Assembly (NCBI GenBank): GCA_963704755.1
Contig: OY969938.1
Location: forward strand, 3,150,001 to 3,182,000
From: an uncultured Chloroflexia bacterium
Lineage (GTDB): Bacteria; Chloroflexota; Anaerolineae; Anaerolineales; Anaerolineaceae
Length of the DNA: 32,000 nt
Reading direction: 5' to 3'
Shown here: positions 8,922 to 26,182 of the stretch, in pieces
Position numbering within the stretch: position 1 is the stretch's first letter
How the letters are laid out: each line of letters starts with the position of its first letter
Notes under the pieces: model-generated
What the model saw: the letters and a program-made list of their open reading frames with translations, nothing else
The model's database searches: none
Told to the model about the DNA's origin: nothing
Program-made: the position numbers and the translations under genes

Positions 8922-11247
8922 TCAACTTCCGTATCGGCCACCGGCCGCCTGCTCAGCCCAAACGTACTCATACCCGCTGACGTATGCCGGGTAAGCCAGG
9001 GGTACGTGTTCGCCGTACACTTCCTTTCCAACAGGTTCCTGCTCGGGCCCCGCCCTTTGCATCCTGCCTGGCTCACTAAAATCCAAAGGCCGGGTATCGG
9101 AAGGCATAGCGTCAAAAGGCTCCAGCACCGTGGCGGCCGCGCGGCGCAGTAATTCCAGGTAGCGGTCCACGTCCAGGGCATTGAAGTCCGGCTTCTCCGC
9201 CAGGTCCCAGGCCTGGACTTTGGCCGCCGTGCGCACGTAGAGGAACCGCACCCGCTGGCCGGGCTGTTTGTCTTTGCCCGCCGCGCGCAGTTGCATCAGC
9301 GCACGGGCAGCCGGGGAAGGTACTTTGTAGGCCTCCAGCTCGCGGCTGAGTTTTTGCCCGATCACCAGTTGGTCCAGCGGCACCCGGCCGTGCCGTAAAT
9401 CCGCCTCGCCTTGCAGCAGCAGCGCCTGTGCCTGCGGAATCGCCTGGCGCAGCTCTTCCGCATTTTCTGCCTGCCCGAGCACCTTGAGAATCTGCAACTG
9501 TACATCGGCGATAAACGACGGCATATCCCTGCGCCGGGCATCGATCCCGCGAAATTTGAACGATCCGTCCTGAAAAACGCCGAAATAGCGGTTGGGCACC
9601 GGCACTTTAGAATTGACTCTGGAGGGCAAGAAAACCAGCCAGCGATAGATGCCATCCAGCGCGATCGAGAGCCCCGTACGGCTCGAGATTTCATCCAGCA
9701 AAGGTTCGAACTGGTCCGGACGGTTAAAATCCTTTTTCCGCACCCACAAGCCATCCACATACATATGCAGCACCTCAAATCCCAGGTCTTCCGCGGCTTC
9801 CTTGGCCAGCAGCAGCGCCTCGCGTCCCCAGGTGGTGACCGCCTCGTGCGATTCGATCCGCCCGAAGCGGCTGTTTTTATAGCCCAGGTAGCCAAAACAG
9901 GTGACCAGCAGCCATTTGTGGGCCGACGAAATCGCCTGGTAGCGCTTATAGCGCGGGTCGGTGTCAGGCATGTTCCCCAAAGTCAGCTTGATGGTCACGC
10001 GTTTATCCAGCAGGGGTTTGAGGGTGAGAGGGATCAGCCCTGGTTCTTCGTTGGAGCCAAGGAATGTGGGCACCGGCTTTTCCGGGGAAATATTGCAGCG
10101 CACCATGATGCTGGGGTACATGGAGATAAAATCGATTTCGGCCACGTCGGAATGAACCCCGACGATGGGCTGGTAAACCAGGCCGCCTTGATCGTAGCGC
10201 AGCAGATCCAGGGCGGTTTTAGGCCGCTCGGCCTGCTGTTTGTGCCACGGCACCAGAATCTGGTTACGCAGCGCGGTAAGGATCTGCATCGAGGAAATGC
10301 CCGTGCCCGGAGAAGTGCGGGCCGAGGTTTGAATAGACAGGGCCGTGACCCGCGCGCCTTCCAAAATGCCTTCCAGGTCCTCGGCGCCCCACAAAGAGGA
10401 ATTGTGCCGGTCTACGTGACAGCGCCCAAACAGGTGGATCTGCTGGCCTTTATAAATGATCTGGCCGTAGCTGAAATAGGAATTCTCCCGCTTTTGAATT
10501 ATCCCGCGCCCGGCGTCACGGTTGAGCGGCAAGGGCACCCCCCGGCGCTGGCTTTCTTGCAGCAGCAACGGCAGCAGCCAGGTATCTCCCCACTTGCTCA
10601 AGAGGATGTCGGGGTCGACATGCTGCAGAATAGAGCCCAGGCGGGTGACCAGCGTATCCATTTGCCCAAAGGAAAGCTCAAGGACATCCTGCTCATAGCC
10701 CACCCGCAGGATGCGCGGCGGTTCATGCTGGGGGTCGCAATCCGGCTCCAGGGTAAGGACACGCAGCGGCGCCGGGAGTGGGTCAATATCCCAGGGCGAG
10801 TCCAGCACACGTACTCCATGGATCTGGCCATTATTTGCATAACTGACCTGGCAAAACGCCAGTGGAAAGGTGTTGTATACCGCAGCGTAACGCAGGCAGA
10901 GCTGAATATCCGCGTCGTAATAGGTCAGCTCGGGAAAAGCGTGCGACATTCTCAAGAACAGGTTCGGTTGAGCGGCCGCGTTGGCTACCTGGACCGTGAG
11001 CAAAGTGACCGGTTCAGGTAGAAAAAGATCGCGTCCCTGGCTGCGGCCCAATTTTAGCGATTTCGGGCTGATTTTTTAGCCAGCGCCACGCCGTTCGCAG
11101 GCGTTCGGTTGGCCCGGTTAGCGAAAATGTGACCGGAAAGTATTGATGCAGCCTCAGCCGCTCTCCGCTGCTGGTGATGAACCAGATCACTATCCCCTCA
11201 TGGCTATCCGCGTACAGGTCCAGCAGCCAGCCGGTTTGCTCGTTCAT
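8922..11247 (-). pseudogene. polB: Divergent family-B (Pol II-like) DNA polymerase, split by a +1 frameshift between 11017 and 11075
   Basis: Motif A EIDFISMYPSIM, motif B-like KWLLVTCFGYLGYKNSRFG, motif C region LHMYVDGLWV, KxY-like PNRYFG. The N-terminal 77 aa (MNEQTGWLLDLYADSHEGIVIWF..., ORF 11014-11247) are in another frame that overlaps the main 709-aa ORF (8922-11051). It may be intact if the shift is an assembly error. Confidence 0.75.
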
Positions 11248-11543
11248 ATGCGCGGTGTCTGGTTCGATTGGTCGGGAGACGCCGGCAGAGACCTCAATAC
11301 TCCCTCCAGCAGCGTACGCAGATGGGTGACCTCTTTATGTTCTTCGAGCAGCATCGAAAGCAAAAAGATTTCCATCGGCAAGGCATTGGCCGCATACGCA
11401 GCCGCTGCCAGATGGTTGTGTGCAGCGGCGAATAAATCGTCCAATACCAGTTGGTCGCTGCGGCGTAAAGCGCGCCGAAAGCGGCTGAACGATTCTTGCT
11501 CCTGCAAAAATTCCATCGTAATGGAAGGTATCGTACGTCCCAT
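11244..11543 (-). CDS. Hypothetical 99-aa helical protein, translationally coupled to the polymerase gene
   Basis: ATG at 11543 with AAGGAGG (11549-11555) 5 nt upstream. Its stop overlaps the polB ATG (ATATGA at 11244-11247). The longer ORF-track start at 11636 would overlap the upstream gene. I recognise no motif. Confidence 0.6.
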   Translation of the reverse strand: MGRTIPSITMEFLQEQESFSRFRRALRRSDQLVLDDLFAAAHNHLAAAAYAANALPMEIFLLSMLLEEHKEVTHLRTLLEGVLRSLPASPDQSNQTPRI

Positions 11544-11559
11544 AACAACCTCCTTATCG

Positions 11560-12147
11560 TTATTGATCCGGCTCTCCAGGCCAGAGCATGGGCGCTGAGG
11601 CGGTCGAAGGGCGTGGTGATTCGAGCTTGATGACATCCGAAACCGACTGTTCCAGCAACTCCAGCAAAGACGTGCGGTTTGCGCTTAACGCGAGGAACGG
11701 TTTTACGCTGATCACGACCGCCGCCGCCTGGCTGAGGCGGTCGAGCTGGATAAGGCTTTGCTGCAGCAGCCGGTAACTTTCCTCCAGGGTTACAGATTCG
11801 TCCAGGTAAGTCGAAAGCAGGTCCAACACCAGGGTAATCATGGGTAGGGCCGGGGTTTCTTCCAGCAAAGTCAGCATCTGATAACAGGTAAACGCACGCG
11901 CCAGCGAAATGCGCGCAAGCGTTTCTTCGAGTCGTGGGGTAAGACGGCGGATCGACTGGGCCACCGGGTAAACATTGAAGCGGTTGCCGCCATCCAACAC
12001 ACGCACGCCGCCTTTGAGCGCCAGGCGGGCAGCCGTTTCGTATATCAGCGGCATACCGGCATGGGGGGCAATGACCAACAGCAGTGAGTTCTTGGTTAAC
12101 TTATTCAGGGGGATTTGCCGGGAAGGTGCAGGCGAAATGGTGTGCAT
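11560..12147 (-). CDS. RecA-superfamily-fold protein with degenerate Walker A (ImuA/RadB/KaiC-like, probably not an ATPase)
   Basis: The pattern is typical of RecA-like cores: strand LLLVIAP, then HAGMPL where GxxGxGK[ST] is expected, a helix, then GGVRVLDG, ISLARAFTCYQMLTLL, a Walker-B-like MITLVLDLLSTYLDE, and LDRLSQAAAVVISVKP. AAGGAG lies 7 nt upstream of the ATG at 12147. Confidence 0.5.
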   Translation of the reverse strand: MHTISPAPSRQIPLNKLTKNSLLLVIAPHAGMPLIYETAARLALKGGVRVLDGGNRFNVYPVAQSIRRLTPRLEETLARISLARAFTCYQMLTLLEETPALPMITLVLDLLSTYLDESVTLEESYRLLQQSLIQLDRLSQAAAVVISVKPFLALSANRTSLLELLEQSVSDVIKLESPRPSTASAPMLWPGEPDQ

Positions 12148-12167
12148 CAGATGCTCCTTTCTGCCTC

Positions 12168-12196
12168 ATTATACAGAACTTATGTTCTATAGTCAA
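12168..12196 (-). promoter_or_regulatory. Near-consensus promoter with a LexA (Cheo-type) box in its spacer
   Basis: Minus strand reads TTGACT (12191-12196), a 17-nt spacer, TATAAT (12168-12173). The spacer contains the perfect palindrome AGAAC-ATAA-GTTCT (12175-12188), which matches GAAC-N4-GTTC. Confidence 0.6.
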
Positions 12197-12254
12197 TATA
12201 GGATATGCAAGCCGGGGGAATTTCGCCGCTCCAGCTCGCATATCCTATATTGAC
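12192..12254. repeat. Perfect 17-bp inverted repeat with 29-bp spacer, overlapping the -35 of the cassette promoter
   Basis: gtcaatataggatatgc (12192-12208) is the exact reverse complement of gcatatcctatattgac (12238-12254). Confidence 0.85.
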
Positions 12255-12296
12255 TTCCTTATCTCTCCCTTAATGCAACCTTAAGCTCCTCCCTTA

Positions 12297-12324
12297 TTGA
12301 CATTCAGGTCAACCATCCTATAAT
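12297..12324 (+). promoter_or_regulatory. Candidate strong promoter for the BNR lipoprotein gene
   Basis: TTGACA (12297-12302), a 16-nt spacer, TATAAT (12319-12324), about 140 nt upstream of the ATG at 12467. Confidence 0.45.
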
Positions 12325-12466: not shown

Positions 12467-13696
12467 ATGGCAAGTAAGCCTTTCGTACGTACGCTCGTGT
12501 TTACCTTTGTTGTAATTTTGGGGCTGGCAGCCTGCTCGCCCACGCCTACCCCTGCAGCACCCACCGATACAGCAGCTCCCACAGTGCAACCGGCTACGGA
12601 AATGCCGACCGTAGCGCCCGCCACGGAGACTCCCGTTCCTGAAACGGCTACCCCAGAGGTAACCGCCACGTCAACAACCGCTCCGGCGACCATCAACGGC
12701 ATCGACCAGATCAAAATGATCGACGCGACCAACGGTTGGGCTCGCTCCGCCGGCCTGGTGCTGCGGACCAGCGATGGCGGCAGCAGTTTCACATCCGTCA
12801 ACCCGCCCGACCTGGCCAGCTTCAATGGCTCGGCCTATTTCCAGAGCGCCACTTCTGCCTGGCTGATCGTCTCCAGCAACGGCGATATGACCTCGGGCAC
12901 CCTTTATCACACCACTGATTCCGGCCAGACCTGGACTTCGGCCGCCGCGCCCTTTGGCAACGGCCAGATGATCTTTGTCGATGACCAGAACGGCTGGGTG
13001 CTGGAAGGCCTCGGCGCCGGCGCCGGTTCGGAAGGGATCTCCATCTTCCAGACCACCGATGGCGGTACCACCTGGAACCAGGTCTATACTGTGGATAGCA
13101 ACAGCAATAACCAGAGCGGCATCACTCTAGGCGGCGATAAGAGTGGAATCAGCTTTGCCGATGCCACCCACGGTTGGGTAACCGGCAGCATCCCCATGGA
13201 TAACTTCTCTTACCTGTATGCCACCGCGGATGGCGGCCAGACCTTCCAACAGCAGGTCCTGACCCTCCCGTCCAGCCTGGGCACCGTCCAGTTGGGCATC
13301 GATCCGCCGGTGTTCTTCAGCGCAACCGATGGCGTCCTGCCGGTCACGGCGGTTGGCCAGTCCACCAATAAGATCTTCTACGTCACCCACGATGGCGGCC
13401 AGACCTGGACGGCCACTACTCCGCTGGAGAGCAACGGGGTGGTTTCGATCGCCGACATCAACAACTTCTTCGTCTGGGATGGCGGCGCGACGCTGTATCA
13501 CAGCAGCGACGGCGGCCAGACCTGGACATCGGTCTCACCCAATATCAACATCAACCAATCGGTGAATACCTTCCAGTTCATCGATGGCACCAACGGCTGG
13601 GTGGCCTCGAACGATGGCCAGGGCAACACCGCCTTCTACCAGACCAGCGATGGCGGTACCACCTGGAACCCTCTGGCGAGCGGCTCAGCCCAGTAG
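12467..13696 (+). CDS. Secreted lipoprotein with seven BNR/Asp-box repeats (Ycf48/sialidase-like beta-propeller)
   Basis: Lipobox LGLAAC, then a Pro/Thr/Ala-rich linker. Seven S/T-x-D-G/S-G-x-T-W/F motifs follow: TSDGGSSFT, TTDSGQTWT, TTDGGTTWN, TADGGQTFQ, THDGGQTWT, SSDGGQTWT, TSDGGTTWN. GGAGG lies 6 nt upstream of the ATG. Confidence 0.85.
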   Translation: MASKPFVRTLVFTFVVILGLAACSPTPTPAAPTDTAAPTVQPATEMPTVAPATETPVPETATPEVTATSTTAPATINGIDQIKMIDATNGWARSAGLVLRTSDGGSSFTSVNPPDLASFNGSAYFQSATSAWLIVSSNGDMTSGTLYHTTDSGQTWTSAAAPFGNGQMIFVDDQNGWVLEGLGAGAGSEGISIFQTTDGGTTWNQVYTVDSNSNNQSGITLGGDKSGISFADATHGWVTGSIPMDNFSYLYATADGGQTFQQQVLTLPSSLGTVQLGIDPPVFFSATDGVLPVTAVGQSTNKIFYVTHDGGQTWTATTPLESNGVVSIADINNFFVWDGGATLYHSSDGGQTWTSVSPNININQSVNTFQFIDGTNGWVASNDGQGNTAFYQTSDGGTTWNPLASGSAQ

Positions 13697-14039: not shown

Positions 14040-14726
14040 ATGAACAAAGAAAAGACAGAACAACGCAAAAAGAACATTTTACAAACCGCCTCCAGGTTGA
14101 TCACCCACTACGGTTTCGACAAAACTACCATGGAAGACATAGCCCGCGAGGCGGGGGTATCCAAGGGGGCGCTTTACCTGGTGTGGCCCAGCAAAGATGC
14201 GCTCTTCGACGAGCTGATTGTCTTCGAGATGAAGCGGCTTGTGTTGGATTTCCAGCGCCGCATGGCGCACGACCCCCAAAGCGGTACGATCGCCAGCCTG
14301 TATACCCATGGCTTAATGGCCTTGAATGACAACCCGCTGGTGCGCGCGCTGTACACCCAGGACAGCCGCGTTCTGGGCAACTATGTCAAGCAGCAGGACG
14401 CCAGCCGTTATACCCGCCGTGTACTGCTGGCGGAAGGCACCATCCGGCAGATGCAGGCCGCCAACCTGCTGCGCCAGGATATCCGTCCCGAGGTGATCAC
14501 ACACCTGTTCAGTATCATCTCGGTGGGTTTTATTTATATCGGAACCATTATCCCGCCGGCCGACCAACCGCCCCTGGAAGAGGTTATCCGCGCCTTCAGC
14601 AGCGTAATCCAGCGCGGTTTAGGCGGCCCGGGTGAAGACACCGCCGCCGGCAAACAGGCGATTGCCAGGTTGAATGAATTTATATTGCAGCAGTACGATG
14701 AGGACGAGGCGAAGCATGAAGATTGA
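14040..14726 (+). CDS. TetR/AcrR-family transcriptional regulator
   Basis: N-terminal HTH KKNILQTASRLITHYGFDKTTMEDIAREAGVSKGALYLVWPSKDALF. I prefer the ATG at 14040 (MNKEKTEQ...) because the ORF-track start at 13968 lies inside the 25-bp palindrome. Confidence 0.85.
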   Translation: MNKEKTEQRKKNILQTASRLITHYGFDKTTMEDIAREAGVSKGALYLVWPSKDALFDELIVFEMKRLVLDFQRRMAHDPQSGTIASLYTHGLMALNDNPLVRALYTQDSRVLGNYVKQQDASRYTRRVLLAEGTIRQMQAANLLRQDIRPEVITHLFSIISVGFIYIGTIIPPADQPPLEEVIRAFSSVIQRGLGGPGEDTAAGKQAIARLNEFILQQYDEDEAKHED

Positions 14727-15568
14727 GCGCATGGAACAGCACAGTGTGCGGATCGACGGGAAAGAGATAGTCTATTACGAAGCCGGCAGCGATGGCTCGC
14801 CGGTCCTGCTGCTGCACGGCGGCGGGGTCGATTCGGCCCTGATAAGCTGGAACGAGATCATCCCCCTGCTGGCGGAAAGACACCGGGTCATCGCCCCGGA
14901 CCTGCCCGGGTACGGCCTGAGTGCCAAACCGAAAGTGGACTATACCCAGGAATACTACCTGGACTTTTTGGGCAAGTTCCTCGACGCCCTGCACCTCGAA
15001 AGGGCCAGCCTGGCCGGGCTTTCGCTGGGAGGAGGGCTTTCGCTCGGCTTCACCCTGGAACATCCCCAGCGGGTGGACAAACTCATTCTGGTTGACAGCT
15101 ATCGGGATTCAATCTTTCATGGCGTATCACAAGCTGATCTATTTTTATGTCTTCACGCCGTTAAATGAGCTTTCCTTCTGGGCATTCAAACGCAGTAAAA
15201 AGATGGTTCGTGATTCGCTGAAAGCCGCCATCTACGACCCGCAAAATATCACCGCCGAGCTGGTCGAGAGGGTCTGGCAAGAAGTAAGCAATCCCTTTGC
15301 CGGGAAGGCATTTGCCTCGTGGCAGCGCAGCGAGTGCCGCTGGAATGGCCTAAAAACCGACTATACCGGTCGCCTGGGTGAAATTCACACCCCCACGCTG
15401 ATCTTGCACGGCGACCACGATACGACTGTGCCGGTTTTCTGGGCCGAACGTGCCCATGCGGCAATTCCGGGTTCCCGCTACGTACCGCTCAAGAACCGCA
15501 GGCATTGGGCCCTTCGCGATAATCCCGATGAGATTGTCGAGATCATCCAGGGCTTTCTGGGGGAATGA
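14716..15568 (+). pseudogene. Alpha/beta-fold hydrolase (MhpC/BphD-like) interrupted by a +1 frameshift near 15101-15107
   Basis: HGGG oxyanion motif, nucleophile elbow GLSLGG, and C-terminal LILHGDHDTTVP ... RHWALRDNP (Asp and His of the triad). The N-terminal part (ORF 14674-15168) and C-terminal part (ORF 14921-15568) are in different frames. The sequence reads through as ...KLILVDSY[G/R]IQSFMAYHKL... if one base around tatcggg is removed. Confidence 0.75.
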
Positions 15569-15750: not shown

Positions 15751-18189
15751 GTGTATCTCAGCGGCGTACTGTTTTTGTGCGTTTTTTTGGCCGCGGCCTT
15801 TGGCAGAACAGGAATTCCTTTCCTTTTGGTCGTTGTGGCCATGACCGGCCTGGGAATCGTGCTGCTGCTGCCCTACCTGCGGCGCCTGTTCCAAATTGGG
15901 GTGGCCCTGGAGCGCTTTTCACACGGTGACGCCGGCAAACGCATCTCCGTCCGATTTTTCGACCCGCTGAAGAAGTTGGTAGAAATCGTCAACCGGGTGA
16001 CCGGGGCCGGCCAGAGCCACGAATTGCGCGAGCAGTTGGAAATGGGCATCGAACAGACCGCCGCCCAGCAGGAGCGCAACCGCCTGGCCCGCGAACTGCA
16101 CGATTCGATCAAGCAGCAGTTGTTCAGCATCCAGATGAGCGCCGCCGCCGCCGAAAAACGCCTGACGCTTTCGGCCGAAGACGCCGGCGGCTCGCTGGAT
16201 GCGATCCGCGACGCCCGCCAGAGCGCCCAGGAGGCCCTGGTGGAGATGAATGCGCTGCTGGCCCAGCTTTCGCCGGCGCCCCTGGAAAAAGTCGGCCTGG
16301 CCCAGGCCCTGCGGGACCAGTGCGAGGCGCTCGGCTACCGCAGCGGCGCCCAGGTGACCTGCGAGATCGGCGAGCTGCCGACGGAAAAATGGCTGGTGAC
16401 CGGCGTCCAGGAAGCCCTGTTCCGCATCGCCCAGGAAGCCCTCAGCAACGTATCTCGCCACGCCCGAGCCGGGCAGGTCCACCTCAGCCTGGACTGGAAC
16501 CACGCTGCCTCGGTGCTCGAGCTGGCGATCAGCGACGACGGCCTGGGGTTCGACCCGGCGGGTGAGCCCCAGGGCCGCGGGCTGGCCGGCATGCGCACGC
16601 GGGTCGAAAGCCTGGGCGGTCAGATCGAAATCGACAGTGCGCCCGGCCAGGGTACCCATTTGCAGGTCCGCTTCCCGGTTTACGCTGAGGAAGAAGCGAT
16701 CGCCATAACCGCTGACCATGCGCCCAACCGGGTCGGCCTGGTCAGCCTGGGCGGCGGGGTGCTGGCCGCGCTGCTGCTGGCTGTGCCCTGGATCCTTCAC
16801 ATTCCGCAACTCGGGCTGAGCGGCGGCAACCTGCTCGACCGCATGCCGGATGGGGTGGCTTATCTGCTGGCAGCAATGGTGGCGCTGCTGAGCGGCTGGC
16901 TGGCGGCCCGCTGGGTGCGCCATAACGGCATCCTGGCCGGCGGCGCAGCCGGCCTGCTGGCCGGCCTGGTGACGTACGGCCTGGTCGGCGGGGCCTGGGC
17001 GGGCGTGCGCGGCTCGCAGGCGCTGCTGGCCAACGGGTGGAATTCTCTTCCTGAGAATGCAGTAACCGGCCAGCTCATGGAAAGCACGGGGCACATTTTC
17101 TTGTGGACGGGTGGGCTGTACATTGTCATCTTATTGGCCGGCGCCTGCCTGGGGGCATTGGGCGGGCTGATCGCTTGCGGCAGGCAGGAGATCACCCTGC
17201 CGGTCGATTGGCGCGCGACATGCAATTTGCTGGCCGCTCCGGTGGTGATCAGCAGCGCCGGCGCCATCCTGCTGGCCGGATTTTTCATGCCGCTCATCGA
17301 AGGGGCCAGCCTCAACCTGCCGTATGACATTCTCGGAACCATACCGGTTAACCTCATTAGCGTTGCCTGCCTGGTGCCGCTGGTCATTCCAACCATTTTC
17401 TACATCGCCGGGGTCGCCTGGCAATACAAGGCCCTCCAGGCCGAATTTGAACAAAAAAGCCTGTCCGGCCTGCCCGCGCTGCACTGGCAGACCTTGACCT
17501 GGACCACGCTGTATCTTTTGGTGGGGGCAATCGCCTTACTCGTCAGCTTCGGCTTCCTCACTCGCGCCGGGTCGTCTGAAGTCCCGGCCACTTTACTCAT
17601 TGCCCTGTACCCCCTGGCTGCAACCGGCATTTTCAGCCTGGTGATGACCACCCTTTACGGCGTGCAGCTCGGCAAAATCCGCCAACGGATGCTCCAAAAC
17701 CATCAGCCGGTGCCGTCATTGGTGATGTACGCCGGCCTGATCATCCTGCCGGTCAGCCTGGTGTTCACCTATCTCACCTTACTTGATTCGCAATGGCTTG
17801 TCGCGGCTTTTCTGTCCTGGCTGGTTGAAATGATTTGCCTGGCCTACCTGCTCATCGCACGGCACTTGCCAACGGGCACCGCCGGGCGGGCCTTGCGGCG
17901 CAGCGCCCGCGAAAACACCGCCCGGCTGAGTGGGTCCTGGCTGCTCGTTTCGCTGCTCTTCCTGCTGCCGGCGCTTGACCTGGGCGCGGCCGGGCTCTCC
18001 TTGCTGTCCATCCCGGCCCGTATGACACCCAATGGCCTGGAAGACCTGACCCAGAAAAGTATCCTCGGCCAGCATTACCTGGTCCTGGCCGGGACCTTCG
18101 TCGGGCTGCTGGTGATCGCCTTTGGTTTGACCGGCTTCCGCCAGATCTTGAATGCCCTCGCCGGGCTGCGCATTCGCAAAGAGCTATAA
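15751..18189 (+). CDS. NarL-type histidine kinase core fused to a C-terminal integral-membrane domain of about 500 aa and about 12 TM segments
   Basis: Two N-terminal TM segments, a linker, the H-box ERNRLARELHDSIKQQLFS, then HATPase_c (EALSNVSRHA, DDGLGFD, GLAGMRTRVESLGG) ending near residue 310. About twelve hydrophobic segments follow to residue 812 in the same frame. The start codon (GTG 15751) is uncertain. Confidence 0.7.
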   Translation: MYLSGVLFLCVFLAAAFGRTGIPFLLVVVAMTGLGIVLLLPYLRRLFQIGVALERFSHGDAGKRISVRFFDPLKKLVEIVNRVTGAGQSHELREQLEMGIEQTAAQQERNRLARELHDSIKQQLFSIQMSAAAAEKRLTLSAEDAGGSLDAIRDARQSAQEALVEMNALLAQLSPAPLEKVGLAQALRDQCEALGYRSGAQVTCEIGELPTEKWLVTGVQEALFRIAQEALSNVSRHARAGQVHLSLDWNHAASVLELAISDDGLGFDPAGEPQGRGLAGMRTRVESLGGQIEIDSAPGQGTHLQVRFPVYAEEEAIAITADHAPNRVGLVSLGGGVLAALLLAVPWILHIPQLGLSGGNLLDRMPDGVAYLLAAMVALLSGWLAARWVRHNGILAGGAAGLLAGLVTYGLVGGAWAGVRGSQALLANGWNSLPENAVTGQLMESTGHIFLWTGGLYIVILLAGACLGALGGLIACGRQEITLPVDWRATCNLLAAPVVISSAGAILLAGFFMPLIEGASLNLPYDILGTIPVNLISVACLVPLVIPTIFYIAGVAWQYKALQAEFEQKSLSGLPALHWQTLTWTTLYLLVGAIALLVSFGFLTRAGSSEVPATLLIALYPLAATGIFSLVMTTLYGVQLGKIRQRMLQNHQPVPSLVMYAGLIILPVSLVFTYLTLLDSQWLVAAFLSWLVEMICLAYLLIARHLPTGTAGRALRRSARENTARLSGSWLLVSLLFLLPALDLGAAGLSLLSIPARMTPNGLEDLTQKSILGQHYLVLAGTFVGLLVIAFGLTGFRQILNALAGLRIRKEL

Positions 18190-18298: not shown

Positions 18299-18952
18299 AT
18301 GACAAATAGACAACACACCCTCCGGGTGGCGCTGGTCGATGACCACAACGTGGTCCGCCGCGGAATGCGGACCTTCCTCGAATCGTTCGCGGATATCACC
18401 GTCGTCGCCGAGGCGGCCACCGCCGAAGAAGCCCTGGCCCGTCTGGATGACTGGGATGCGGAGATTGTCTTGATGGACCTGCTCCTACCGGGCGGCATGG
18501 ACGGCATCGAGGCCACCCGGCAAATAGCCCGCACTCATCCGCAAGTGCGGGTGGTGGTCCTGACCGCCTACACCGACGAAGCCCGCGCCATCGCGGCCCT
18601 GCGGGCCGGGGCCCGCGGCTATGTGCTCAAAGACGCCAGCCCCGAAACGCTGCTGGAGACCATCCGCGCCGTGGCCCGGGGGCAGCGGGCCATCGACCCG
18701 GCCCTGTCGCAGGACCTGTTGAGCGACAACGGCAGCAGCCCTCTATATGGGTTGACCCCACGCGAGCTGGACGTGCTGCGCCAGGTTGCCCAGGGCAAAA
18801 CCAATCACGAGATCGCCGCCGAGCTGGTATTGGGGGAAGAGACGGTCAAATCGCACGTCGCCAGCATCCTGGGTAAGCTGGGCCTGACCAGCCGCTCGCA
18901 GGTCGCCGCCTATGCACTCAAACAAGGGCTGCTGCGGCTGGATGAAATATAA
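18299..18952 (+). CDS. NarL/LuxR-family response regulator
   Basis: Receiver domain LRVALVDDH...EIVLMDLLLPG and C-terminal HTH LTPRELDVLRQVAQGKTNHEIAAELVLGEETVKSHV; 217 aa. Confidence 0.9.
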   Translation: MTNRQHTLRVALVDDHNVVRRGMRTFLESFADITVVAEAATAEEALARLDDWDAEIVLMDLLLPGGMDGIEATRQIARTHPQVRVVVLTAYTDEARAIAALRAGARGYVLKDASPETLLETIRAVARGQRAIDPALSQDLLSDNGSSPLYGLTPRELDVLRQVAQGKTNHEIAAELVLGEETVKSHVASILGKLGLTSRSQVAAYALKQGLLRLDEI

Positions 18953-25204: not shown

Positions 25205-26182
25205 CTACGGCAAAGCCTCTCCGCGGCCGGCCAGGAACAGGCGGTACCAGTCTTCGCGGCCCAGCTCGACCTGGTCACCCTGGCAGGCGGCGGCGATACG
25301 CTGCGGGCGGGTGGTGCCGATGATGGGCTGCATGTGAGCCGGATGGCGCAGGATCCAGGCGGTCAGGATGGCTTCGGCCGGCACACCGTGGGCTTTGGCC
25401 AGTTGGGCGACCACCGCGGAGGCCTGGGTGGCCCGTTCATCTGCTTCGCCATCGTCGCGGCCAGTCAGCCAGCCCCAGGCCAGCGAACCCCAGGTCTGCA
25501 AAGTGATGTTGTGCAGGCGGCAATACTCGATGGTGCCTTCGTTGCGGGCCAGCAGGGGATTATCCTGGTTGAAGACGATACCCTCGTTGAGCATATGCAG
25601 GTTGAGCGGGTTGAATGCCACCTGGTTGGCCACAATGGGCTGGTCGAGGGATTGGCGCAGCAGCTCCAGTTGGGCGGCGGTGTGGTTGCTGACCCCGAAC
25701 CAGCGCACCTTGCCGGCCTGGTGCAGCTCATCGAAGGCGCGGGCTACTTCTTCCGGCTCGACCAGCGGGTCGGGGCGGTGCAGCAAGAGCACGTCCAGGT
25801 AATCGGTTTGCAGGCGTTTCAGGCTGCCTTCCACCGATTCAATGATGTGCTCGTAGCTGAAATCGAAGCGCTGGGGAGAACCGGGGTTCGGCTCACCCGG
25901 AAAGCGGATGCCGCACTTGCTTTGCAGCAGAATCTTCTCGCGCAGGCCGGGAACTTCTTGCCAGATGGCGGCGAAGACCTGCTCGGACTTGCCCTTGCAG
26001 TAAATATCGGCGTGGTCGAAGAAGTTGATGCCCTGGTCGAGGGCTGCGCGGATGCTGACGACCGCCTCACGGCGGGTCTGTTCCTGGAGCGGGCTGTTAT
26101 CCCAGGTGCCGCCCAGGGGCATGCAGCCGTAGCCGATGCGGGTCACCTGTAAATCCGAGGCGCCTAACGAAATGGTTTGCAT
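25205..26182 (-). CDS. Aldo/keto reductase family oxidoreductase (YdhF-like)
   Basis: GYGCMPLGG, FFDHADIYCKGKSE, LDVLLLHRPDPLVEPEEVARAFDELHQAGKVRWFGVSNHTAAQLELL. These segments closely parallel what I recall of E. coli YdhF. Confidence 0.85.
   Translation of the reverse strand: MQTISLGASDLQVTRIGYGCMPLGGTWDNSPLQEQTRREAVVSIRAALDQGINFFDHADIYCKGKSEQVFAAIWQEVPGLREKILLQSKCGIRFPGEPNPGSPQRFDFSYEHIIESVEGSLKRLQTDYLDVLLLHRPDPLVEPEEVARAFDELHQAGKVRWFGVSNHTAAQLELLRQSLDQPIVANQVAFNPLNLHMLNEGIVFNQDNPLLARNEGTIEYCRLHNITLQTWGSLAWGWLTGRDDGEADERATQASAVVAQLAKAHGVPAEAILTAWILRHPAHMQPIIGTTRPQRIAAACQGDQVELGREDWYRLFLAGRGEALP

Follow-up and report, generated by a model that had tools for sequence, protein, structure and literature searches.

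A probable PolB2 mutasome operon with a putative LexA operator inside its promoter, from an Anaerolineae-class Chloroflexota chromosome

The stretch of DNA analysed here, 32,000 nt long and hereafter called the window, carries on its minus strand three closely packed genes that very probably form a chromosomal PolB2 mutasome operon (iRadA-PPB2-PolB2) of an Anaerolineae-class Chloroflexota. The iRadA gene (11560-12147, 195 aa) comes first, and is followed by the PPB2 gene (11244-11543, 99 aa) and the polymerase gene polB2 (8922-11247). The gap between iRadA and PPB2 is 16 nt (11559-11544) and contains an AAGGAGG Shine-Dalgarno sequence 7 nt past the iRadA stop codon, while the PPB2 stop and the polB2 start overlap by 4 nt as ATGA (11247-11244). 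The first-pass annotation of this DNA had already placed the first two minus-strand genes where we find them and had seen the ATGA overlap and the Shine-Dalgarno sequence, although its 17-nt gap and its Shine-Dalgarno sequence directly after the stop have to be corrected to the above values. It had also described the polymerase as one open reading frame (ORF) at 11247-8922, which does not hold, since this span of 2326 nt is not divisible by 3 and is read in two frames, with a +1 frameshift near 11052-11055.

The operon is preceded by a promoter with a TTGACT -35 hexamer (12191-12196, minus strand) and a TATAAT -10 hexamer (12168-12173, minus strand) separated by 17 nt. It agrees with the consensus at 11 of 12 positions, and the first-pass annotation had already called it near-consensus; a scan of 4 kb turned up just one other promoter resembling the consensus. 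A leader of 20 nt with a Shine-Dalgarno sequence follows the -10 hexamer. Lying wholly within the 17-nt spacer is a perfect palindrome, AGAACATAAGTTCT (12188-12175 in the direction of transcription, no strand assigned), of the form AGAAC-N4-GTTCT, which was likewise described earlier and which we consider a putative LexA operator (Cheo-type SOS box).

From the predicted structure of the 195-aa protein, its relationship is clear, even though neither Pfam nor NCBIfam gave any match and its 792 homologues, all from Anaerolineae-type sources, are without exception unnamed. An AlphaFold2 model (pLDDT 88.7, 35-sequence alignment) was compared with the PDB using Foldseek, and the top 50 matches were all RadA/Rad51/Dmc1 cores, with E values from about 5e-8 to 6e-7 and query TM-scores of 0.58-0.71. 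The protein comprises the RadA/Rad51 ATPase core with no N-terminal helical domain, and its ATPase-site residues are lost: the P-loop position reads APHAGMP, without GK[ST], and the APHA in place of the Walker A motif (GxxGxGK[ST]) is kept across the 35 homologues. As judged from this model, iRadA is a catalytically inactive RadA/Rad51-core protein. The earlier description of a degenerate RecA-fold protein lacking Walker A is thus borne out by the RecA-superfamily similarity that AlphaFold and Foldseek returned, while the likeness to ImuA or KaiC drawn in the same place is not what Foldseek found, the resemblance being to RadA/Rad51 of archaea and eukaryotes.

The C-terminus of iRadA deserves separate mention. 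Its homologues share a conserved C-terminal x-L-[WF], for example QPGLW, ALPLW or TLPLF, and the window version is APMLW, in which PMLW is a possible beta-clamp-binding motif. No motif of the x-L-[WF] kind was seen in the tail of the window PolB2 when its translation was read by eye. In the published family, the clamp-binding motif resides mostly on the iRadA C-terminus, otherwise on PolB2 and rarely on both (PMC11791011), and the supplement of the same study scores QLVLW-type motifs in Anaerolineae iRadA.

The 99-aa product of the second gene is PPB2 (arCOG07300 / DUF8156), a protein of three predicted helices with an N-terminal MGRT arm. Its N-terminus reads MGRTIPSIT, of which M1, G2, R3, T4, P6 and T9 are invariant in 27 homologues. 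Local Pfam and NCBIfam scans gave no match for this sequence, although an identical protein, P0121, carries PF26485; of its 3266 homologues, all 120 among the matches listed are annotated as PF26485/DUF8156. The helices are predicted at residues 5-25, 28-53 and 56-85 (model pLDDT 67), in agreement with the published account of PPB2, in which some 90 aa form three helices preceded by a conserved MGRT arm at the N-terminus (PMC11791011).

The third gene, judged by its main reading frame, is a family-B polymerase with a degraded exonuclease. PF00136 is matched with an E value of 1.5e-31, and the best NCBIfam model is the archaeal-type NF004416 (392 bits). When aligned to archaeal PolBs (PDB 5mdn), motif A is intact (DFISMYPS) and motif C reads YVD opposite the DTD of 5mdn, whereas ExoI has changed from DIE to EPD and ExoII from FD to WL, and the exonuclease region is shortened. 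These changes support the exonuclease deficiency suspected in the first-pass annotation and also agree with the published PolB2 family, in which the first Asp of DxD is substituted and there is no exonuclease active site (PMC11791011). The string HMYVDGLWV of the window is identical to a PolB2 'YVD' entry in the supplement of Timinskas et al. Inspection by eye picked out a candidate D-x-GG (YDQGG) immediately ahead of motif A, where the supplement sequences have SDRGG, ADRGG or SDLGG.

A module of these three families is already known since 2014, when Makarova, Krupovic and Koonin (PMC4104785) described PolB2, an inactivated RadA and arCOG07300 as one predicted operon of archaea and several bacteria. 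It has since been subjected to an in-depth analysis by Timinskas, Timinskas and Venclovas in 2025 (PMC11791011), in which the partners were renamed iRadA and PPB2 and the bacterial gene order was found to be solely iRadA-PPB2-PolB2. Many Anaerolineae/Chloroflexota operons of type 1a with YVD are listed in their supplement. Compared with this type 1a PolB2 mutasome (PMC11791011; PMC4104785), the window operon agrees in its three families and their order, in the MGRT arm, the Walker-A-less RadA core, YVD for DxD, a degraded exonuclease, an iRadA C-terminal LW/LF and a predicted link to the SOS response, and it differs in that its polB2 is split by a +1 frameshift. Two of the related loci that we have collected, L044 and L080, are the HGW-Chloroflexi-2 and -4 operons typed as '1a iRadA-PPB2-PolB2' in the Timinskas supplement (exact sequence match), and the window trio is 47% and 44% identical to them in iRadA, 63% and 51% in PPB2, and 57% and 50% in PolB. 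The order iRadA-PPB2-PolB2 is retained in most of the 83 related loci. It is the gene order and coupling, the Walker-A-less RadA fold, the MGRT arm, the YVD with the degraded exonuclease and the homology to L044 and L080 on which the identification as a PolB2 mutasome is based.

The first-pass annotation had instead proposed an undescribed architecture, namely a PolB-based analogue of the imuA-imuB-dnaE2 mutasome. The resemblance to that cassette is by analogy only: both combine an SOS box, or LexA regulation (predicted from sequence for the window), with an inactive RecA-superfamily protein and an error-prone polymerase. In imuA-imuB-dnaE2 the polymerase is of family C rather than B, the Y-family-like ImuB has no counterpart in the window, where the middle gene is PPB2 (DUF8156), and ImuA is not of the RadA/Rad51 type, so that the cassettes share no homology beyond the RecA superfamily. 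Pfam and NCBIfam searches detected no ImuB or DnaE2 homologue, the sole polymerase match being PF00136, and iRadA is RadA/Rad51-like, not ImuA-like. The exact three-gene system has been published, Anaerolineae members included, and its standing as an undescribed analogue is refuted by this literature and by the homology to catalogued PolB2 operons; the idea of a dedicated translesion module, analogous and not homologous to imuA-imuB-dnaE2, fits the locus well.

Other known polymerases share single aspects of the PolB2 mutasome. [quoted passage not shown] Pol V belongs to family Y, however, and uses the active cellular RecA. E. coli Pol II is likewise of family B and SOS-induced, but it is a single subunit with an active exonuclease; the window polymerase reaches only 51 bits with the Pol II model NF004421 (cut-off 570), has a degraded exonuclease and is accompanied by two partner genes. 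A homologous three-gene module, which is damage-inducible, is formed in Sulfolobus islandicus by Dpo2 (PolB2), a proofreading-dead extender polymerase, and its two partners, one radA-like and the other arCOG07300. This archaeal system differs in employing Orc1/Cdc6-type factors in place of LexA and PCNA motifs in place of beta-clamp motifs, and in having IID where the window has YVD. DNA damage induces the PolB2 operons of archaea, and targeted mutagenesis depends on Dpo2.

The occurrence of the palindrome was checked both in the window and in related genomes. GAAC-N4-GTTC occurs three times in the window against 0.41 expected; the sites at 25878 and 26763, being intragenic, with GC-rich spacers and no A/T flanks, are taken as chance. 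When a genome collection was searched with the iRadA alignment, relatives turned up in 536 species genomes, and 80 loci, nearly all labelled Anaerolineae or Chloroflexota, were fetched. Allowing no more than one mismatch to AGAAC-N4-GTTCT, the 1400 nt ahead of iRadA contain a box in 75 of 84 loci, compared with 0.04 expected per locus from the remainder of the same loci. It stands directly upstream of iRadA in 37 loci, as in the window, 520-1350 nt upstream in 35, and at both positions in 3. In the 35 loci with a distant box, the distance from the iRadA match is mostly 550-700 nt, and the box precedes an extra gene of about 135 aa.

The alignment of 79 distinct upstream sites gave the consensus cTTGAc.atAGAACAaATGTTCTaTaaaAt, in which the box fills the 17-nt spacer between the -35 and -10 hexamers. 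The -35 TTGAC is found at the same offset from the box (T57/T64/G60/A56/C50 of the 79 sites), and a TAnn[AT]T hexamer follows within 0-2 nt of the box in 58 of the 79. The same layout of -35 hexamer and box, cTTGACA..AGAACATCTGTGCT..AAACT, precedes recA in L033 (box at 12041-12054) and L057 (11208-11221); this recA comparison covers two related genomes, since only 32 kb of the window's own genome was at hand. A further box, upstream of an Ig-domain gene in L031, showed no link to repair and was set aside.

The LexA motif established for Gram-positive bacteria is GAAC-N4-GTTC (PMC3323433). With this motif, the conservation of the operator and its sharing with recA, LexA repression is the best-supported mechanism for the PolB2 operon, as predicted from its promoter, and the SOS-controlled look of the cassette pointed out in the first-pass annotation is strengthened accordingly by the 75 of 84 loci and the two recA promoters. 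As a group, the Anaerolineae PolB2 operons appear to be direct LexA targets through a spacer-embedded operator. A lexA gene lies inside the PolB2 operon in some bacteria (PMC4104785), and published neighbourhood analyses have found lexA enriched beside bacterial PolB2 operons or within them. The spacer box itself is not mentioned in the main text of PMC11791011 or in the available portion of PMC4104785, both of which give lexA as a neighbour only.

One may ask whether the palindrome could instead be the operator of a regulator other than LexA, either a dedicated repressor or the small protein, with a GerE domain and a ribbon-helix-helix (RHH)-like N-terminus, that is encoded by the extra gene mentioned above, which would leave the operon outside the SOS regulon. 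About half of the related operons do begin with such a GerE-type regulator gene of their own, no lexA was seen nearby, and LexA binding of the box is a prediction. Yet the box is the exact canonical Gram-positive LexA core (PMC3323433), it is found at the same in-promoter position in two related genomes before recA, the box is present in the window operon even though a GerE gene is not, and bacterial PolB2 operons are linked with lexA in the published neighbourhood analyses. A non-LexA regulator is therefore unlikely in our view, and we retain LexA as the probable repressor.

The extra first gene, found in L031 and 37 other loci and thus in about half of the related Anaerolineae loci, encodes a protein of approximately 135 aa (for example L031:5461-5865, L035:5458-5865 and L051:5470-5874). 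Its N-terminus is RHH-like as judged by eye, followed by a GerE/LuxR helix-turn-helix (HTH) domain (PF00196, E 4.5e-13) and a conserved C-terminal WDFSxW, and in these four-gene loci the LexA-type box is situated upstream of the GerE gene. The window operon is without this gene, the only similarity being a generic LuxR-HTH one to a response regulator at 18299-18952. In Timinskas 2025 (PMC11791011), GerE figures only as a frequent neighbour in Table S1 and not in the text. This RHH-plus-GerE first gene, present in about half of the Anaerolineae operons and often on a leaderless transcript, would appear to add a second layer of control.

Two further observations concern the upstream regions of these relatives. 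The four-gene variant has a second, weaker palindrome, ATAGAAAATATTTTCTA, of the form TAGAAA-N4-TTTCTA and with half-sites GAAA/TTTC, about 35-40 nt before the iRadA start and with a conserved GGGAT ahead of it (L035-L038, L040, L044, L047, L056, L059 and L062); this palindrome may serve as a second operator or mark an internal promoter. Leaderless transcripts are implied in many relatives by a first ATG only 6-8 nt past the -10 hexamer (L014:5972-6000, L060, L071, L035 and others). A GerE-iRadA-PPB2-PolB2 operon of Chloroflexota-like character, with a LexA-type box and a promoter of the bacterial sigma-70 kind, is also present in L043 (LNGC01000057.1), a contig labelled as the archaeon Candidatus Methanofastidiosum that is probably mis-binned.

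The frameshift in polB2 requires closer attention, as the gene in the window is distributed over two frames, a 77-aa ORF (11247-11014) and a 709-aa frame (11051-8922). In a tblastn search with the intact 738-aa PolB2 of L001, residues 1-76 were matched at 66% identity, with collinearity ending near residue 63 and the remainder out of frame. The L001 homologue is in frame and reads ...QPEKMELGRSQGRDLF without a gap, and the window needs one base fewer between 11060 and 11051 to do the same. The simplest explanation is an extra A in a run of four (A4, 11052-11055, minus strand), read as GCT AAA a TTG, which on comparison with L001 is the likeliest frameshift site. It divides the gene into an N-terminal segment of 65 codons in the frame of the ATG at 11247 (11053-11247, minus strand) and a main segment of 709 codons that contains PF00136 (8922-11051, minus strand). 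With one A deleted, a 774-aa protein collinear with its homologues results.

The question then arises whether what this strain carries is the remnant of an operon in decay and no longer functional, in which a real +1 mutation leaves a 77-aa peptide and perhaps an internally initiated fragment, and no mutasome is made. The frameshift is present in the sequence as given, and relatives with incomplete systems, in which iRadA stands by itself or iRadA-PPB2 has no PolB2 next to it, point to loss of the polymerase in the lineage. Apart from the single extra base, however, the gene is intact over its 774 codons, has no other stop and is 73% identical to L001, and no damage is seen in iRadA, PPB2, the promoter or the operator. 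The frameshift sits in a homopolymer run, and a second single-base frameshift about 4 kb from polB2 suggests assembly indels. We hold a decayed operon to be a serious alternative, somewhat less probable than an operon still at work. For the frameshift taken by itself, assembly error and true decay are almost evenly balanced.

The second frameshift affects an unrelated alpha/beta-hydrolase gene (14674-15568, plus strand), which is split into two overlapping frames by one inserted base near 15100 (AGC TAT c GGG ATT), so that positions 2-103 and 127-245 of the Pfam Abhydrolase_1 profile fall in different ORFs. Two single-base frameshifts within 32 kb suggest indel errors in the assembly. PolB2 matches in several pieces, evidently in different frames, were also seen in two long-read genome bins (L045:6941-8934 and L069:7068-9126), suggesting that frameshifted polB2 genes in assemblies of this lineage are often technical. 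A programmed frameshift was considered and rejected, as there is no recognisable recoding signal and the L001 homologue is in frame. That the A run acts as a reversible, phase-variation-like homopolymer switch, turning the mutagenic polymerase on and off while iRadA and PPB2 stay under LexA control, we regard as very unlikely.

Partial systems are found among the relatives in two forms. iRadA-PPB2 with no PolB2 detected in the fetched locus occurs in L031, L033, L051-L053, L057, L058, L063, L076 and L078, and iRadA alone in L011, L013, L014, L016, L018, L020 and L024. Most keep the LexA-type box upstream, the upstream sequence of L053 being too short to tell, and their PolB2 may be encoded elsewhere in the genome or may have been lost. 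Genes for IF-2B, PfkB and AdoHcyase come after the operon in L031. Two ORFs downstream of the orphan iRadA in L011, of 178 aa and 232 aa, were considered as a new module and rejected, since by eye they look like antisense translations of convergent genes.

A working scheme for the PolB2 operon can be drawn from these data together with the published AlphaFold models and Sulfolobus genetics. In the undamaged cell, LexA bound to the AGAAC-N4-GTTCT operator in the -35/-10 spacer would block RNA polymerase, and upon DNA damage the RecA-stimulated self-cleavage of LexA would derepress the operon. The products would then assemble as PolB2 : iRadA : (PPB2)3, in keeping with the modelled complex of PolB2, iRadA and a PPB2 trimer (PMC11791011). 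In those models, PolB2 contacts iRadA and PPB2 through a loop that contains a beta-alpha Rad51-oligomerisation-like motif together with a conserved D(K/R) (PMC11791011); iRadA would accordingly dock onto the Rad51-oligomerisation-like motif, and one PPB2 MGRT arm would be inserted near the active site. The complex would extend primers past lesions without proofreading, and is probably recruited to the beta-clamp via the iRadA C-terminal LW/LF motif. If the frameshift is an assembly error, the operon would be functional; otherwise it would have been inactivated recently.

Several points weigh against this picture and must be kept in mind. As written, polB2 encodes no full-length polymerase, because of the +1 frameshift; the gene is thus not an intact, translatable one, which bears on its function and not on its family identity. 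The PPB2 monomer model is of modest confidence (pLDDT 67, pTM 0.31), the APMLW terminus of the window iRadA is without the leading Gln of QLxLF-type clamp motifs, and YDQGG, picked out by eye, is a candidate for the conserved D(K/R) of the PolB2 loop. A tblastn search of the window and of the 6 kb around each of the 83 related loci with B. subtilis and E. coli LexA captured no lexA, so the repressor is deduced from its motif only. Finally, that a Chloroflexi LexA uses the Gram-positive box goes back to a report on Dehalococcoides, in which GAAC-N4-GTTC is said to have been shown by Fernandez de Henestrosa and colleagues in 2002.

Among prokaryotes, no multisubunit translesion polymerases of family B are known other than the PolB2 mutasomes. 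Those of Sulfolobus account for damage-induced mutagenesis, while the bacterial ones have so far been studied in silico only. With respect to this literature, nothing at the locus is categorically new, but it offers clean cis-regulatory evidence that would place the bacterial version in the SOS regulon. The additions are small, namely a conserved operator that is embedded in the promoter and shared with recA, the four-gene RHH-GerE variant and the partial systems. They come with a correction, in that a system first read as undescribed is a published one (PMC4104785, PMC11791011; L044 and L080 are catalogued) and its polymerase gene is frameshifted in the assembly.

The surroundings of the operon show a few more features. 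A 25-nt inverted repeat with 92% complementary arms (12191-12215 and 12231-12255; overall 12191-12255, no strand assigned) has an 18-nt perfect core, GCATATCCTATATTGACT, and one of its arms includes the -35 hexamer of the operon. It is predicted to form a DNA hairpin of -26.1 kcal/mol (z -7.1), is unique in the window, and was not conserved in the related upstream regions inspected. A perfect TTGACA-16-TATAAT promoter (12297-12324, plus strand; 12 of 12 positions) faces a divergent BNR/Sortilin-repeat gene at 12467-13696. The neighbours of the operon are ordinary chromosomal genes, including ABC transporters, two-component systems and TetR regulators. Further away, an 812-aa ORF (15751-18189, plus strand) has histidine-kinase domains at residues 108-310 only, after which come some 500 residues without annotation, in a 70% G+C stretch (16001-17000); the ORF could represent a fusion, a read-through or another frame problem.

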